From Actinomycetales bacterium (GTDB lineage Bacteria; Actinomycetota; Actinomycetes; Actinomycetales; Quadrisphaeraceae), in NCBI GenBank assembly GCA_022701985.1, contig JAKONK010000053.1, positions 1,320-65,319 of the forward strand: a DNA stretch of 64,000 nt, read 5' to 3'. This document shows positions 24,199-60,625 of the stretch, piece by piece (within the stretch, counting starts at the first letter, position 1; each line of letters starts with the position of its first letter). Made by a program: the position numbers and the translations under genes. A model generated the notes under the pieces. The model ran no database searches and was not told where the DNA came from. It saw only the letters and a program-made list of their open reading frames with translations.

Positions 24199-24579
24199 TC
24201 ACGGGACCGGGCCGGCGCGCGCCCGCGCGGTGGCGGGGCCGGTCAGCTCCCCCACCGCACCACCCGGCACGGCGGCGACCCGGACGTCGACCACCCCGCC
24301 CCCGGCGGGGGCGCAGCCCACCAGCTCGGTCCGAGCAGCCCGGGCAGCGGCGTCGGCTGCCGCACAGGGGTCCTGGCCGGTCGTGGCCGCCGCTGACGCG
24401 GCGAGGGCCGAGGCGTCAGCAGCCCCGGCCGCCCGCACCGCGGCCAGGGCCACCGAGGCGACGGCGGCCGACCCCGCCCCCAGGACGAGGGCTGCCGCCA
24501 CCACCGCGAGGACCAGCACGCTCCCCGACCCGCCGTCCCCGCGGGTCAGGGGTCCCGCACCCGCCCGGCGCGCGGTCAC
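24199..24579 (-). CDS. TadE-like pseudopilin (Rv3654c family)
   Basis: DGGSGSVLVL, AADASALAA and DPCAAA..C motifs. Confidence 0.82.
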   Translation of the reverse strand: MTARRAGAGPLTRGDGGSGSVLVLAVVAAALVLGAGSAAVASVALAAVRAAGAADASALAASAAATTGQDPCAAADAAARAARTELVGCAPAGGGVVDVRVAAVPGGAVGELTGPATARARAGPVP

Positions 24580-24962
24580 ACCCCGGCCACCGCCGGCTCG
24601 GCAGCGGCCTCGAGAGGGGCCACCGCCTCCCCGGAGACCTCGAGCCGGACGTCCAGCACCGGCACCTCCAGGGGCGCCGCGACCCGGACGCGCACCAGCC
24701 CCGACGCGTCGACGCGCTCGCTCCTGGCCCCCTCCCCGACGGCCGCGGCCACGCGCTGCTGCACGACGGCCGGGTCCTCACCGCGGGCGAGGGCCCGCGC
24801 GGCGGCCCCCGCGGCCAGCTGCACCCTCACCTGGGCCGTTCCCGCCGCGGCGAGCCACCCCGCAAGCAGCAGGACGACACCGACCACCACGAGCCCGACG
24901 GCGAGCTCGGCCGTGACCGCCCCGCGGTCGGCGCTGCTCCGGAGCGGGGCCGAGCGGGTCAC
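24576..24962 (-). CDS. TadE-family minor pilin
   Basis: DRGAVTAELA prepilin motif, AARALARG. Confidence 0.82.
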   Translation of the reverse strand: MTRSAPLRSSADRGAVTAELAVGLVVVGVVLLLAGWLAAAGTAQVRVQLAAGAAARALARGEDPAVVQQRVAAAVGEGARSERVDASGLVRVRVAAPLEVPVLDVRLEVSGEAVAPLEAAAEPAVAGV

Positions 24963-25189
24963 ACGAGGCTCAGCGCGCGCTGCACGAGGGCCAGCAGCAT
25001 CTCGCGCACCTCGCCGCTGGACAGGACCGCGAGCAGCAGCGCCGCGAATCCGCACGCCGCGAGCGTCGCGATGGCGTACTCGGCGGTGGCCATCCCCGCG
25101 TCGGCGGTGGGCCCGGCGGCGGCAGGGGTCCCAGCTGGTGCCTCGGCAGGGGTCTCGCGGGTGCGGCTGGTGTCGGTGGGGCTGGTCAC
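24959..25189 (-). CDS. Flp-like pilin (DUF4244)
   Basis: DAGMATAEYAIATLAA motif; GGAGG SD 6 nt upstream of GTG 25189. Confidence 0.85.
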   Translation of the reverse strand: MTSPTDTSRTRETPAEAPAGTPAAAGPTADAGMATAEYAIATLAACGFAALLLAVLSSGEVREMLLALVQRALSLV

Positions 25190-25272
25190 GGTGGGCCTCC
25201 GGTGGTCGTCCGTCCTGGTGCCGGCGGGTCGTCCCGCCGGCGGCCGCGGTGGGGTCCACCCGGCCTGGACCC

Positions 25273-25361
25273 ACCGTGGCCGCGTCGAGCGACCACGACC
25301 GGCGGGACGCCCTCCCCTGTGGACGGTGAGCGCGAGCGCACCGCCTGTGGGCGCAGCGGCG
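25273..25361 (-). promoter_or_regulatory. Tad element copy 1 plus putative -10 (flp pilin promoter)
   Basis: CCTGTGGAC (25316-24), N19, CCTGTGGGCGCAGCGGCG (25344-61); minus-strand CACGGT at 25273-78. Confidence 0.65.
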
Positions 25362-25364
25362 GGC

Positions 25365-25973
25365 TCACCCCGCGAGCAGGTCGCGCCCGAGCGAGATGAG
25401 CACGGGCACGACGGCGAGGGCCGCGAAGGCCGGCAGGGTGCACAGGCCCAGCGGGGCCACGACCCGCACGCCGAGGCGCGCCGCGGCCAGGGCGGCGGCG
25501 CGCCGCCGGCGACGGCGCAGCTCGTCGGCGGAGGAGCGCAGCAGCACCGCGACGGGCGCACCGGTCTGCTCCGCCAGCTGCAGGCACCGCTCCAGCGGGC
25601 CCCGCAGGGACGCGACGGCGTGCTCCGCGCCGCGGTCGAGGTGCCCCTCGCCGCCCGGGGGCCCCGGCGGCGAGGGGCGTGCCGGGGGCGCCGGGCGCTG
25701 GAGGCCCGCCCGCGCCAGGTGGTCGGCGACCGGTGACCCGGCCTCGCGCAGCACCCGCGCCACCGCCTCGACCGCCGAGGCCGGCGGGGCTCCCGCCTCC
25801 ACGACCGCGGCGACCAGGTCGAGCACGAGCGGGGCGTCCGGGAGGGGTGGCTGCAGGCAGCGGGCCCTGCCGGCGGCCCGTGCGCGAGCCGGCCGGGGGC
25901 GTCCGGGCGGCAGCACGACCGCCAGCGCCACGAGCACCGCTGCGGCCAGCGACGTCACCGCGGCCGCGCTCAC
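25365..25973 (-). CDS. TadC / type II secretion system F family protein
   Basis: LDLVAAVVEAGAP and VVAPLGLCTLPAF motifs. Confidence 0.8.
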   Translation of the reverse strand: MSAAAVTSLAAAVLVALAVVLPPGRPRPARARAAGRARCLQPPLPDAPLVLDLVAAVVEAGAPPASAVEAVARVLREAGSPVADHLARAGLQRPAPPARPSPPGPPGGEGHLDRGAEHAVASLRGPLERCLQLAEQTGAPVAVLLRSSADELRRRRRRAAALAAARLGVRVVAPLGLCTLPAFAALAVVPVLISLGRDLLAG

Positions 25974-26016
25974 CAGCCGCTCCCAGGAACCCCCACCGGA
26001 CCCTCCACCGGGGCGC

Positions 26017-26751
26017 TCACCGGGCGCGCTCCGCGGCGCGCACGAGCAGGGCCGTCCACGCCCAGCCCAGGGCGGTGGCGGTCAGGCCGACCGCAGCGCA
26101 CCACCGCCCGGGCGCCGTGCCGAGGAGCACGGCGACGGGGTCGGCGCCGACCAGCACGCCCAGCAGCACCCCGGCCAGGGGCAGGACGGCGAGGAGCCGG
26201 GCGGTGGCGCGCGGACCGGCGAGCGCCGCGTCGCGGGCGTCCCGGGCGCTCGCGTCGTCGAGGAGCGAGGTGACGAGCCGGTCGAGGACCGCCGCGGCCG
26301 GGGCCCCGGTGGTCTCGCTGGTGCGCCACGCGAGCGCGAGGGAGTCGAGGGCAGCCGCGGCCCGGGGCGGTCGCGAGCCCGAGCGGAGCTCGGCCACCAG
26401 GTCCTCGCCCCTCACCGCGGCCCGGGCCGCGCGGTCGAGGACCCCGCCCAGCGGAGCGGGGCCGGCCGCCGGGTCCCAGCGCTGCGGCGCCCAGGCGGCC
26501 GGCGGCGGCGCGCCCGCGCGCAGGAGTGCCGCCACCTCGGCGGCCGCACGCGCGACGACGACCCCGGCCGGCTCAGCGGTCCCGGCGGCCCCGGCGCGGA
26601 GGGCGGTGCGCCACCGCGCGAGCGCCGGAGGACCCGCCCCGGCGCGCCGTCCGCGCCCCCGGGCGGCCCCGGGAGAGGCGACCGGCCCCAGGAGGAGCCA
26701 CGCCGCCAGCCCCGCGGCGCAACCCGCCGCTGCGGGCAGCACGCCGCTCAC
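26017..26751 (-). CDS. TadB / type II secretion system F family protein
   Basis: AALLRAGA, TGAPAAAVL, AGPRATARLLAVLP; start overlaps the tadA stop. Confidence 0.8.
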   Translation of the reverse strand: MSGVLPAAAGCAAGLAAWLLLGPVASPGAARGRGRRAGAGPPALARWRTALRAGAAGTAEPAGVVVARAAAEVAALLRAGAPPPAAWAPQRWDPAAGPAPLGGVLDRAARAAVRGEDLVAELRSGSRPPRAAAALDSLALAWRTSETTGAPAAAVLDRLVTSLLDDASARDARDAALAGPRATARLLAVLPLAGVLLGVLVGADPVAVLLGTAPGRWCAAVGLTATALGWAWTALLVRAAERAR

Positions 26752-27788
26752 GCCGTCGCCAGCAGCGGCACGGCCGCCACCTGGAGCAGCTCGGCGAGCC
26801 GCTCCCACCCGGGGCCGCGGGTGCCGGGGCGCTGCGGGGAGCGGTCGGCGACCAGCGCGGGCACCACCGCGAGCGCCCCGTCGGTGCTGCTGCGGCCGAC
26901 CACGCCCACCTCGACGACGCGGCGCAGGGCCCCCTCGCGGCGCAGGTGCACGACCACCTGGAGCCCCGCCTCCGCCTGGGCGGCCAGGGCGTCCGGACCG
27001 AGGCCCCCCAGAGCTCCCAGCGCCGCCAGGCGGGCCGGGACGGCGGACGCGGCGTTGGCGTGCACGGTGCAGCAGCCGCCCTCGTGGCCGGTGTTGAGGG
27101 CGAGCAGCAGGTCGGCGACCTCCGCGCCGCGCACCTCGCCCACCACCAGCCGGTCGGGGCGCATCCGCAGCGCCTGGCGCACGAGCTCGCGCTGGCCCAC
27201 GGCGCCGGCGCCCTCGACGTTGCCGTGCCGCGCCTGCAGGCGCACGACGTGGGGGTGGGCGGGCGCCAGCTCGCCGGCGTCCTCGACGAGCACGATCCGC
27301 TCGCGCGGGTCGGCGAGGCCGAGCAGCGCGGCCAGCAGGGTCGTCTTGCCGCTGCCCGTGCCCCCCGAGACGAGCAGCGACAGCCGGCGCCGCACGACCG
27401 CCGCGAGCACCGGCCCCCACCCCGGGGGCACCGACCCGCCCGCCTCGAGCTCGGACAGGCGCAGCGGTGCCCGGCTGGGGACCCGCAGCGACAGCAGGGT
27501 CCCGCTGCCGGAGACCGGGGGCAGCACGGCGTGCAGGCGGGTCCCGTCGGCGAGGACGGCGTCGACGCAGGGGCTGGCGTCGTCCAGCCGCCGGCCGGCG
27601 GTCGCTGCGAGCCGCACCGCCAGGGCGCGCAGGCCGTCCTCCGACCCGACGTCCAGGTCGACGCGCTCCAGCCCGTCGCCGCGGTCGACCCAGACGGAGC
27701 CGGGCCCGTTGACCAGCACGTCGGTGGTGCCCGGGAGGTCGAGGAGCTGCTGCAGCGGACCGGCGACCGGGGTACCGGCGGGTGTCAT
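26748..27788 (-). CDS. tadA: TadA/CpaF pilus assembly ATPase
   Basis: Walker A GGTGSGKTT, ALRMRPDRLVVGEVRG, NTGHEG. Confidence 0.93.
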   Translation of the reverse strand: MTPAGTPVAGPLQQLLDLPGTTDVLVNGPGSVWVDRGDGLERVDLDVGSEDGLRALAVRLAATAGRRLDDASPCVDAVLADGTRLHAVLPPVSGSGTLLSLRVPSRAPLRLSELEAGGSVPPGWGPVLAAVVRRRLSLLVSGGTGSGKTTLLAALLGLADPRERIVLVEDAGELAPAHPHVVRLQARHGNVEGAGAVGQRELVRQALRMRPDRLVVGEVRGAEVADLLLALNTGHEGGCCTVHANAASAVPARLAALGALGGLGPDALAAQAEAGLQVVVHLRREGALRRVVEVGVVGRSSTDGALAVVPALVADRSPQRPGTRGPGWERLAELLQVAAVPLLATA

Positions 27789-29032
27789 GCGCGCCTCCGC
27801 CGTCCGCGGCCGGCGCGGGACCCGCCACCGGGTGCCGCACCGCCAGCACCGGCACCGCTCGCACCGCTGGCTGCGGGGACGGGGTCACGGGGGTCGAGCT
27901 CGTCGACGGCGTGGAGCACCGAGCGCGCGCACCGGGCGAGGGCCCCGCGCGGTCGGGGCAGCGGCTCACCGCGACCGAGGGCCGCGCGCACGTCCGCGGC
28001 GTGGCCGAGGTGGTCGAGCAGCGGCAGGGCGAGCGCGTCGGCCACGTCGTCGGGGGCCAGGGGCGCCCCGGGGCGCGTCGAGACGACGAGGCGCACGTCA
28101 CCGGCGGGACCGACGAGCCCCGGCAGCAGCGCCTGAGCGGCGGCCACGGCGCGGAGCTGGGCGGGCACCAGCACCACGAGCAGGTCCAGCTGCCACAGCA
28201 GGGACTCCAGCGCGGGACCCGTGCGGGGGAGGTCGACGACCACCAGGTCGCTGGCGCGGGCCGCGGCCGCCACCACCGCCTCCACGGCCTGCACCGGTGC
28301 CGCTCCACCGGTCGTCGCGGAGCCCCGTGGTCCCTCCCCCGGGCCCGCTGACCAGGCGAGCACGGGCAGGCCGCTGCCGGTGCGCGGCAGGCCGTCGCGC
28401 AGGGAGGCAGCGCGCAGGCGGGGCCCGGCCCCGAGCAGGTCGGGCCAGCGCAGGCCCGGCTCGTCGTGGACCCCCAGCAGGAGGTCGGCGCCTCCGCCCA
28501 CGGGGTCGGCGTCGAGCAGGAGCGCGGTGCGGGCGGGGGCGGTGCGGGCCGCAGCCGCGGCCAGGACGGAGGCCCCCGCTCCCCCGCAGGCGCCGACGAC
28601 CCCCACCAGCCGGCCCCGCAGACCGGGGCCCTCCGCGGCGGCGGCGAGCGCGCTCGCCACGAGCGGCGACTGGTCGGGCAGCACGGCGACGGCCTCCGCC
28701 CCGGCGTCGACGGCGGCGCGCCAGAGCCGGGCGCTCCCGTCGGTGCCGTCGGTGCCGTCGGTGCCGTCGGGAGCGACGAGCAGCACCCCCGGCCGCCTCA
28801 GGGGCACGCCGCGGGCGGCGGCGTCGTCGCCGAGCAGCACGGTGCCCGCGTCGCGCCACAGGCCGCCGGCCGCGGCGACGTCGGCGGCGACCCGGACCCG
28901 GGCGCCCTCGGCCGCGGCCAGCCGCAGCACGTGCTCCACGAGCACCGAGCGACCGGTCACGAGCAGCACCTCGTCGGTCGCGGAGGGAGCTGCCGCCCGC
29001 GCGACCCGGTCCTCACCAGCACCTGCGTCCAC
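27785..29032 (-). CDS. ssd: Ssd/TadZ-like septum-site-determining protein
   Basis: Degenerate Walker A GACGGAGAS, DADPVGGG, GLRWPDL. Confidence 0.85.
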   Translation of the reverse strand: MDAGAGEDRVARAAAPSATDEVLLVTGRSVLVEHVLRLAAAEGARVRVAADVAAAGGLWRDAGTVLLGDDAAARGVPLRRPGVLLVAPDGTDGTDGTDGSARLWRAAVDAGAEAVAVLPDQSPLVASALAAAAEGPGLRGRLVGVVGACGGAGASVLAAAAARTAPARTALLLDADPVGGGADLLLGVHDEPGLRWPDLLGAGPRLRAASLRDGLPRTGSGLPVLAWSAGPGEGPRGSATTGGAAPVQAVEAVVAAAARASDLVVVDLPRTGPALESLLWQLDLLVVLVPAQLRAVAAAQALLPGLVGPAGDVRLVVSTRPGAPLAPDDVADALALPLLDHLGHAADVRAALGRGEPLPRPRGALARCARSVLHAVDELDPRDPVPAASGASGAGAGGAAPGGGSRAGRGRRRRA

Positions 29033-29039
29033 GGGACCG

Positions 29040-29128
29040 ACCCTGGGGCGTCCGTCCCGCCCCCCGTCGGCTCCGGCGGCCGCCTGTGGACAGCGGCGCG
29101 CCGGGGCCGCCCTGTGGGCGCAGCGGCG
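29040..29128 (-). promoter_or_regulatory. Tad element copy 2 plus putative -10 (ssd promoter)
   Basis: CCTGTGGAC (29083-91), N19, CCTGTGGGCGCAGCGGCG (29111-28); minus-strand CAGGGT at 29040-45, 7 nt from the GTG. Confidence 0.65.
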
Positions 29129-29250
29129 CCCGGCACCGTGATGACCACCCCGTGACCCGCGCTTGACCTCCCCTTGACGGACGCTCCGCCACGGGCTGTG
29201 CTGTGGGCCGGTCGTGCGCGACGAGGCGCCGACCCGCCCCAGGAGGTTCC

Positions 29251-59984: not shown

Positions 59985-60625
59985 CCGCCGCGACGGGGAC
60001 CTTCCGCCTCGACCGGGGCACCGCCGAGGGCACCTTCAGCCTCGACGGGCAGACCTTCGACGTCGAGAACAACGTCCTGGTGCTCGGGGACGACGCCGAG
60101 TGCCTCGTCGTCGACGCGCCGCACGACCTCGAGGCCATCGCCGCGCTGGTGGGCGGCCGGCGCGTCGTCGCCGTCGTGTGCACCCACGCCCACGACGACC
60201 ACGTGCGCCGCGCCCCCGCGGCCGGGGAGCGCTTCGCGGCGCCGGTGATGCTGCACCGCGACGACCTCGGCCTGTGGACGCTGACCCACCCGACGTCGGC
60301 GCCGAGCGAGCTCCTCGAGGACGGCCAGGTCCTCGTCGTGGCCGGCCACGAGGTGCACGTGCTGCACACCCCGGGGCACTCCCCCGGCTCGGTGTGCCTC
60401 TACGTGCCCTCGCTGGAGACCGTGCTCACCGGTGACACGCTCTTCGCCGGGGGGCCCGGGGCCACCGGCCGCTCCTTCAGCGACTTCCCGACGATCATCA
60501 CCTCCATCCGGGAGCGCCTGCTCGCGCTGCCCCCGGGCACCGCAGTGGTGCCGGGTCACGGCGGCTCGACCACGGTCGGCGACGAGTCGCCGCACCTGCA
60601 GGAGTGGGTCGACAGGGGCCACTGA
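59981..60625 (+). CDS. MBL-fold metallo-hydrolase (Rv2260-like)
   Basis: [20 protein letters not shown]; GTGA overlap with mscR. Confidence 0.9.

Follow-up and report, generated by a model that had tools for sequence, protein, structure and literature searches.

A paired DnaA-box-like promoter element at a Tad pilus locus, probably a control element of natural competence in Actinobacteria

Introduction

Both promoters of a Tad (tight adherence) pilus locus in a member of the Quadrisphaeraceae carry the same two-part sequence at the same distance from a −10-like hexamer, which raises the question of what this element controls and which protein recognizes it. The locus lies in a 64,000-nucleotide stretch of an Actinomycetales genome (assembly GCA_022701985.1, contig JAKONK010000053.1, positions 1,320–65,319), which was analysed as a whole and is referred to here as the window; unless a locus number is given, coordinates are those of the window. 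One copy of the element precedes ssd and the other precedes flp, the prepilin gene. Comparison with other actinobacterial genomes, where the same architecture precedes DNA-uptake and recombination genes, indicates that it is probably a shared cis-element of a previously undescribed natural-competence (DNA uptake and recombination) regulon.

What controls competence in high-GC Gram-positive bacteria has yet to be settled. ComK (PMC12849477), ComX and Sxy are absent from Actinobacteria, and a 2026 study of Micrococcus luteus states that the competence regulatory cascade is still to be identified (PMC12849477). In the literature that we searched there was no description of the motif, of a tad or com regulator, or of an actinobacterial competence regulon, and a search with the bare sequence returned primers only. 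An earlier note on this DNA, made from its sequence alone, likewise knew of no described regulator for the element.

Results

An identical two-part element at both Tad promoters

The sequence CCTGTGGAC-N19-CCTGTGGGCGCAGCGGCG is found in the 64-kb window only at 25316–25361 and 29083–29128, with a chance expectation of none. Its 9-bp block (CCTGTGGAC, 25316–25324 and 29083–29091) and its 18-bp block (CCTGTGGGCGCAGCGGCG, 25344–25361 and 29111–29128) are identical at the two sites, whereas the 19-nt spacers (ggtgagcgcgagcgcaccg and agcggcgcgccggggccgc) bear no relation to each other. Each 9-bp block is followed on the minus strand, after exactly 37 nt, by a −10-like hexamer: CACGGT (25273–25278) on the flp side and CAGGGT (29040–29045) on the ssd side, the latter 7 nt before the ssd GTG. 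The blocks, spacers, hexamers and distances had been described in the earlier note, and all proved exact on re-reading. In the tad sense, both sites read CGCCGCT-GCGCCCACAGG, 19 nt, C(T/C)GTCCACAGG, 37 nt, and the hexamer CAGGGT or CACGGT.

A looser pattern, CTGTGGRC-N15–25-CTGTGGRC, occurs twice in 64 kb and produced no match in 100 dinucleotide-preserving shuffles. The 8-mer by itself is present at chance level in the window (8 found versus 8.4 expected), and the signal therefore resides in the paired arrangement. The one single copy that was read, at 60271, sits within the coding sequence of an MBL-fold hydrolase and appears chance-like. A relaxed matrix scan of both strands revealed no third array in the window.

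At the ssd promoter (all features on the minus strand), the distal box GCGCCCACAGG (29111–29121) is kept in two Quadrisphaera loci (L005 and L009), while its 7-nt 5′ extension CGCCGCT (29122–29128) is the same at both window sites and varies among genomes. The proximal box CTGTCCACAGG (29083–29093) has the hexamer CAGGGT 39 nt past its 9-mer, and the same hexamer and distance recur in L005 and L009. A leaderless transcript is predicted to begin at the ssd start codon (29030–29032). In such −10-only promoters a NANNNT hexamer precedes the start codon by 6–7 nt and a conserved −35 element is missing; the CAGGGT-N7-GTG arrangement at ssd has this form and suggests a leaderless actinobacterial mRNA.

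The flp-side site, also on the minus strand, is located 3 nt past the tadC stop codon and 126 nt ahead of the flp GTG. Its distal box GCGCCCACAGG (25344–25354) carries the same 5′ extension (25355–25361) as that at ssd, and the proximal box CCGTCCACAGG (25316–25326) again lies 39 nt, measured from its 9-mer, from the hexamer (CACGGT, 25273–25278). The sequence CCACGGTGG is kept at this distance in L005, L009 and a close relative, L001. From a predicted flp transcription start near 25266, the 5′ untranslated region would extend ∼76 nt and contain GGAGG ahead of the GTG. Four probable RNA runs among public reads (with 6–8% of words) yielded contigs corresponding to ssd, tadA and tadB fragments, with no transcript ends.

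The shared 5′ extension has partial counterparts elsewhere. Within a genome, the 5′ flanks of the two distal boxes agree at 8 of 12 positions in the window, 10 of 12 in L009 and 7 of 12 in a Kineococcus locus (L013), against a between-genome mean of 3.9; such high identity is not general among genomes. Gene conversion is one possibility for the 7 nt common to the two distal boxes of the window. Upstream of the distal ssd box by 87 nt, and ∼42 nt ahead of the DUF485 start on the opposite strand, is a weak third box in the same orientation (CGGCCCACAGC, 29199–29210); it may be a chance occurrence.

Conservation and geometry across actinobacterial tad loci

The element was compared across actinobacterial tad loci, with 86 non-redundant loci in the matrix scan below and 80 metagenomic loci in the comparison of box pairs. 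Both boxes are present at both promoters in L001 (a 94% relative), in Quadrisphaera oryzae (L005) and in a Quadrisphaera metagenome-assembled genome (L009), with spacers and flanks that differ. In these close relatives the ssd spacer measures 30–31 nt versus 19 in the window, a difference of one extra helical turn. The boxes are also kept in Quadrisphaera sp. DSM 44207, Thalassiella and Kineococcus (TadA identity 66–73%), and approximately 45 of the 80 metagenomic loci (TadA 54–71%, G+C 54–82%) show CCACAG as tandem pairs on the sense strand upstream of ssd or flp. The antisense strand yielded just one such pair in 516 kb of metagenomic tad loci. The earlier note had argued that fixed geometry with divergent spacers points to selection rather than simple duplication, and had made this depend on conservation of the motif at orthologous ssd and flp genes. 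Both expectations are borne out, since the boxes and their distance from the hexamer persist at those genes from 94% down to 54–70% TadA identity while spacers and flanks diverge.

The same distribution was obtained with an independent matrix, derived from the DnaA boxes of the Mycobacterium tuberculosis oriC (PMC7738170, Table S10). On the sense strand there were 4.0 hits per kb immediately upstream of ssd (−1500 to −1200 from tadA) and 1.8 per kb upstream of flp (+2400 to +2700). The antisense strand and the remaining positions mostly gave 0.1–0.5 per kb (maximum ∼0.8); the signal upstream of ssd and flp stands ∼10-fold over background.

Start-to-start distances between boxes, taken from 70 arrays, peak at 18–20, 28–30 and 40 bp; spacing in whole helical turns would place the boxes on one face of the DNA. 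A NANNNT hexamer begins 37–40 nt past the proximal 9-mer in 53 of these 70 arrays, compared with a background of 1–2 per offset. The aligned sites hold no information at −35, and show a start-codon signal 6 nt past the hexamer.

Several loci carry additional features near the boxes. In Kineococcus a 6C RNA (RF01066; L013, 2664–2735) is located just upstream of the box pair, a placement that matches the B11/6C small RNA beside Rv3660c in M. tuberculosis, and Thalassiella has a similar C-rich double hairpin (L012, about 2640–2720). The window has no 6C RNA, and that side is held by the actP-acs genes. In a Pseudokineococcus locus (L011, 6893–8623) the region between tadC and flp is occupied by long tandem arrays of 14-nt units (GTGCCCGGTCGGAC) and 18-nt units (GCTGCCGACGACGAGCGC, ∼16 copies).

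Likeness of the boxes to DnaA boxes

The unbiased consensus of the family, YY[G/A]TCCACA followed by G, corresponds at all nine positions to the DnaA-box 9-mer TT[A/G]TCCACA. The element consists of two 10–11-bp boxes with the consensus (G)YY[G/A]TCCACAG(G/C). High-affinity DnaA boxes read TTATCCACA in Escherichia coli and TTGTCCACA in M. tuberculosis and Streptomyces coelicolor (PMC4285127, Table 1). Tad loci of lower G+C content read TTATCCACAG or TTGTCCACAG, and thus contain perfect TTATCCACA or TTGTCCACA boxes. The earlier note had described the resemblance as loose; it is real, and in these lower-GC relatives it is exact, which implies that the ‘unknown regulator’ postulated there may simply be DnaA.

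The window boxes follow the consensus less closely. On the M. tuberculosis matrix (maximum 15.2) the proximal 9-mers score 14.2 at ssd and 13.6 at flp, and the distal boxes 9.7. The distal 9-mer GCGCCCACA agrees with TTGTCCACA at six of nine positions and is then followed by GG. The 5′ TT of the consensus reads as decayed in this very G+C-rich window.

The same architecture before DNA-uptake and recombination genes

The earlier note had proposed a scan for the motif ahead of com, dprA and ssb genes. Such a scan was run on species-representative genomes with another pattern, the lower-GC form of the consensus, TGTCCACA-N20–22-TGTCCACA, to which the boxes of the window do not conform. It returned at least 120 loci, at least 86 of them from high-GC Actinobacteria of many orders (with 96 pattern matches); the counts that follow refer to these 86 listed loci and 96 listed matches. 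In ∼75% of the matches the 9-mer is followed by G, versus 2 of 30 chance hits in low-GC genomes, and in ∼60% it is preceded by G. For 56 of 96 matches the −10-like hexamer begins at an offset of 38–40; at ∼30 of 86 loci the downstream open reading frame has its start codon 49–53 nt past the proximal 9-mer; and no −35 element is conserved. A fixed position relative to the core promoter is therefore common to the tad arrays and the genome-scan sites.

Genes downstream of the listed matches include ssd (4, the sole tad loci among them), comEA (2), comEC (1), comF-like genes (2), yraN followed by comM and dprA (3), recA (3) and SSB-family genes (6), as well as M23 peptidases (7), AbiEi_4/DUF559 proteins (9) and DUF222-HNH nucleases (3). 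The tad, comEA, comEC, comF, yraN-comM-dprA, recA and SSB families account for ∼21 of the 86 sites. The pilus, ComEA, ComEC, ComF, DprA, RecA and SSB make up the canonical late-competence set, and across other actinobacterial orders the motif is found before pilus, comEA/EC, comF, dprA, recA and ssb genes alike. Its presence before uptake and recombination genes suggests that it is probably a control element of natural competence in Actinobacteria. The regulon of Tad and possibly competence genes envisaged in the earlier note is thus upheld as to a competence-type gene set (in other orders), but not as to an element dedicated to Tad. We regard it as likely that a phylum-wide competence regulon exists in Actinomycetota, with one promoter architecture built from DnaA boxes and either DnaA or a DnaA-box-mimicking factor as its master regulator; it would comprise the Tad pilus, ComEA, ComEC, ComF, YraN-ComM-DprA, RecA, an SSB paralogue, cell-wall hydrolases and nucleases.

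Some of the matches have an arrangement of their own. At recA (L144, L156, L172 and L203) the box pair is followed ∼20–30 nt downstream by an RDRM-like promoter, TGTCGGTG-N8-TA(G/A)CGT, so that two phylum-wide motifs are combined in tandem at that gene. Multi-copy arrays occur at L133 (1770–1900), L207 (2600–2700) and L194 (7650–7760); in Streptosporangium, five box copies with a 30-bp period precede an SSB-family gene. One Streptomyces and one Actinomadura genome contain arrays of GGTGTCCACAGGCG with a 14–15-bp period. Two Kribbella matches (L107, 1420–1480; L193, 3650–3710) are palindromic, GTGGACAC-TGTCCACA...GTGGACAG-TGTCCACA, and probably represent an unrelated operator rather than the regulon element.

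Which protein reads the boxes, and to what effect

The element can be understood as a promoter-upstream operator, in which two boxes in the same orientation precede a promoter that has a −10 hexamer and no conserved −35. Relative to the predicted transcription start, the proximal 9-mer would occupy approximately −60 to −52, and the distal box would lie two, three or four helical turns further upstream on the same face of the DNA. In the genome represented by the window it would head two transcription units, ssd-tadABC (predicted to be leaderless) and flp with the pseudopilin genes. A sequence-specific protein would bind both boxes cooperatively and, from its fixed upstream position, aid RNA polymerase at a promoter without a −35 element, that is, activate it. 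If that protein were DnaA, pilus synthesis and DNA uptake would be tied to replication status. DnaA is the single best candidate, and we assign the full explanation, with DnaA as the reader of the boxes, a probability of roughly 0.45; shorn of the DnaA clause, the explanation is one that we hold with considerable confidence.

Several observations weigh against the full explanation. The Pseudokineococcus tad locus (L011) has no boxes, and the distal box of the window is a poor DnaA box. The non-tad members of the regulon were found, among the listed matches, only in other actinobacterial orders, the two tad promoters being what was examined in the window genome. With respect to DnaA itself, none of the 86 listed actinobacterial loci is adjacent to dnaA. 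The mycobacterial DnaA maps (M. tuberculosis IDAP-seq, which sequences DNA purified by affinity in vitro, and M. smegmatis chromatin immunoprecipitation sequencing, ChIP-seq) list dnaB-rplI, oriC, Rv3843c, Rv0010c-11c and rpmH-dnaA, with no tad, com or recA site, although carriage of the boxes by mycobacteria is not established. Genetics in M. luteus implicates an essential HTH_17 protein and ClpXP, not dnaA, in control of the comEA/EC promoter. Finally, the trailing G of ∼75% of the regulon boxes is shared by only 3 of the 17 boxes at the oriC and dnaA promoter of M. tuberculosis and M. marseillense. This last comparison is a weak test, confined to mycobacteria, because R1 and R4, the two strongest boxes of the E. 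coli oriC, read TTATCCACAg and do have the trailing G.

Transcript data for the M. tuberculosis ssd gene exist from three dnaA mutants. By RNA-seq, Rv3660c has a log2 fold change of 0.35 (adjusted p = 0.017) in one of them and is unchanged in the other two (PMC7738170, S3 Table).

The trailing G, rare at mycobacterial DnaA sites, makes a dedicated competence regulator other than DnaA nearly as likely a reader of the boxes as DnaA. Such a protein would have an 11–12-bp specificity, (G)YYGTCCACAG(G), that overlaps or mimics the DnaA box. The conserved G's on both sides of the 9-mer would then belong to its site, and a coherent set of downstream competence genes with no replication gene among the 86 listed loci would follow, as would the missing tad, com and recA sites in the mycobacterial DnaA maps. 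Candidates are the excisionase-type HTH_17 protein of M. luteus (Mlut_14660), mutations in which alter comEA/EC promoter activity, as do mutations in clpX and clpP, or a regulator encoded within the regulon. The spacing of the boxes by integral helical turns, which resembles that of ComK K-boxes, also fits such a regulator. Mimicry might even allow it to compete with DnaA at oriC during competence, by analogy with the Spo0A boxes that overlap DnaA boxes in Bacillus. That an unrelated protein should share all nine positions of the DnaA box is nevertheless improbable without a special reason, and DnaA, being present in every cell, should bind tandem TTGTCCACA boxes anyway. Moreover, no candidate gene is linked to the element within the window, and the comparison with mycobacteria may not be valid for other orders.

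Whichever protein binds, it could in principle hold the tad and com promoters off, with its release constituting induction. The M. luteus authors propose repression of com genes by their HTH_17 protein, DnaA represses several promoters, including its own (PMC8203912), and competence genes are normally silent. We consider a repressor operator unlikely: the boxes never overlap the −10 or −35 region, and a fixed position 37–40 nt upstream with a strict orientation resembles that of an upstream activator and is needless for occlusion. The missing −35 suggests dependence on an activator. Position, orientation and the lack of a −35 together favour activation, which the earlier note had also proposed and which, being read from position, we hold with modest confidence.

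Replication control without a direct transcriptional role is very improbable. The element would in that case act as a cluster that titrates DnaA, like E. coli datA or the DnaA-box clusters of Bacillus and Streptomyces, and it does consist of DnaA-box-like sequences in tandem; such clusters are known in Streptomyces. For titration, however, a fixed distance and orientation relative to the −10 hexamer and start codon would be purposeless, there are just two boxes per site, and the sites are distributed among many promoters that belong to a single functional class. Still harder to credit is a promoter for an alternative (extracytoplasmic function, ECF-type) sigma factor with the two blocks as −35 and −10, even though the proximal box often begins with an ECF −10-like CGTC in Kineosporiales: box spacing that varies from 18 to 40 bp in ∼10-bp steps cannot be tolerated by a −35/−10 pair, CGTC becomes TGTC or TATC in lower-GC relatives, and a separate hexamer is conserved 37–40 nt downstream. 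That the two sites merely reflect a recent local duplication, a gene-conversion tract or an RNA-level structure devoid of regulatory meaning has a negligible chance of being correct: the 18-nt block is the same at both sites including 7 nt outside the box, comparable flank identity exists within L009 and L013, and both spacers are partly palindromic, but the comparative data contradict duplication, with boxes kept across loci of 54–94% TadA identity while the intervening and surrounding sequence diverges.

RNA structure was also assessed and rejected, since the folding energy of 42 arrays showed no excess (mean z = −0.07). A search of the window against Rfam returned two tRNAs only and no family at the element.

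The Tad locus and its surroundings in the window

The genes ahead of which the element lies form a Tad/Flp locus of the Rv3654c-Rv3660c type, with ssd, tadA, tadB, tadC and a DUF4244 flp gene in this order, all on the minus strand. The gene ssd (27785–29032) encodes the actinobacterial CpaE/TadZ homologue (TIGR03815, E = 2e-69; 66% identity to the Q. oryzae protein). It is followed by the secretion ATPase gene tadA/cpaF (26748–27788; Pfam T2SSE, E = 1e-48; 80% identity to Quadrisphaera proteins, which places the organism in the Kineosporiales), by tadB (26017–26754; Pfam T2SSF and codon-position G+C profile, start codon uncertain), by tadC (25365–25973; Pfam T2SSF) and by the prepilin gene flp (24959–25189; DUF4244, with a G/MATAEY processing motif). 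The ssd, tadC and flp assignments of the earlier note were thus right. Two further open reading frames (24576–24968 and 24199–24579) occupy the position of TadE/TadF-like pseudopilins; they are placed there by synteny, having no Pfam match, and their counterparts in L013 match TadE and Tad. Synteny with an MrfA-like helicase and topA agrees with that of relatives.

Two repeats or insertions lie within ssd. In comparison with its Quadrisphaera homologues, an in-frame 54-nt (18-codon) insertion (28973–29026) is located directly past codon 2, with the leaderless GTGGAC start kept, and three copies of a 9-bp tandem repeat (CGGTGCCGT, 28732–28767) encode TDGTDGTDG. A DUF485-actP-acs operon runs divergently from ssd. 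Between the two are two copies of a GTCAAG direct repeat with an 11-bp period (29168–29195), of which the Quadrisphaera metagenome-assembled genome has four copies (GTCAAG/GTAAAG; L009, 2740–2800); they resemble either a binding site for a response regulator or TTGAC −35 elements of the acetate-uptake operon that overlap one another. None of the regulators encoded in the window is linked to the tad locus; they are a GntR-FCD protein, an ECF-type sigma factor, a WhiB protein, a second GntR protein and a histidine kinase.

Discussion

Implications for competence in Actinobacteria

A shared element with a fixed position offers a bait for finding the regulator of actinobacterial competence, and allows the competence regulon to be predicted in any actinobacterial genome. 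Possible new transformation-linked genes are those for the M23 peptidases, AbiEi-DUF559 proteins and DUF222-HNH nucleases. The results further suggest that the ssd-tad locus, which has been studied in mycobacteria for its roles in cell division and adhesion, is part of a DNA-uptake programme. There may also be a mechanistic link between replication initiation and DNA uptake; if DnaA is the master regulator, uptake and recombination would be tied directly to replication status.

Comparison with known regulatory elements

The element shares with DnaA boxes and DnaA-regulated promoters a 9-mer consensus matched at every position (and detected by an oriC-derived matrix), together with a common orientation and a helical phasing of the copies like that for DnaA oligomers. 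It differs from them in lying at a fixed distance from a −10 hexamer and in a fixed orientation to it, in conserved flanking G's that are rare at mycobacterial oriC and dnaA-promoter boxes, in its absence from mycobacterial DnaA maps, and, in the window, in boxes lacking the 5′ TT. Its predicted regulon consists of competence rather than replication genes, and binding of DnaA to it is likewise a prediction.

Two response regulators of Actinobacteria recognize direct repeats with the same CACAG core. One is mycobacterial PhoP, with the site TCACAGC-N4-TCACAGC. The other is MtrA, with the site GTCACAGCG (PMC4285127). Both form dimer sites that repeat every 11 bp, unlike the boxes described here, which are at least 18 bp apart, have no half-site at an interval of 10–11 bp and carry an extra C (TCCACAG). 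Repeats of the MtrA or PhoP type were accordingly rejected as an identity for the element, the core differing by one base.

The RecA-NDp/RDRM motif of the PafBC DNA-damage regulon (TTGTCRGTG-N8-TANNNT) is also phylum-wide in Actinobacteria, starts with TTGTC and is located at recA. It stands where a −35 element would, 8 nt from the −10, whereas the boxes of the present element are paired and lie 37–40 nt upstream of the −10. At recA in L144, L172 and L203 the box pair and an RDRM-like TGTCGGTG-N8-TAGCGT are both present in succession.

As short promoter elements that mark a clade-wide DNA-uptake regulon, the CRP-S sites of the Sxy (TfoX) system in Pasteurellaceae and Vibrionaceae and the cin-box of streptococcal ComX are comparable in function; the regulon in those systems includes the pilus, comEA, comEC, comF, dprA and ssb. 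The CRP-S site is a palindromic CRP site and the cin-box a −10-region element for an alternative sigma factor, neither of them a tandem direct repeat upstream of the promoter. More similar in layout are the ComK K-boxes of Bacillus subtilis, in which two boxes on one face of the DNA are separated by a variable number of whole helical turns upstream of late competence operons (pilus, comE, comF, recA and ssbB). The K-box is AT-rich (AAAA-N5-TTTT), unlike the asymmetric 10–11-mer direct repeats found here, and the pilus in our case is of the Tad/Flp type. The closest functional analogue of the element is therefore the ComK K-box, and its closest relative in sequence is the DnaA box.

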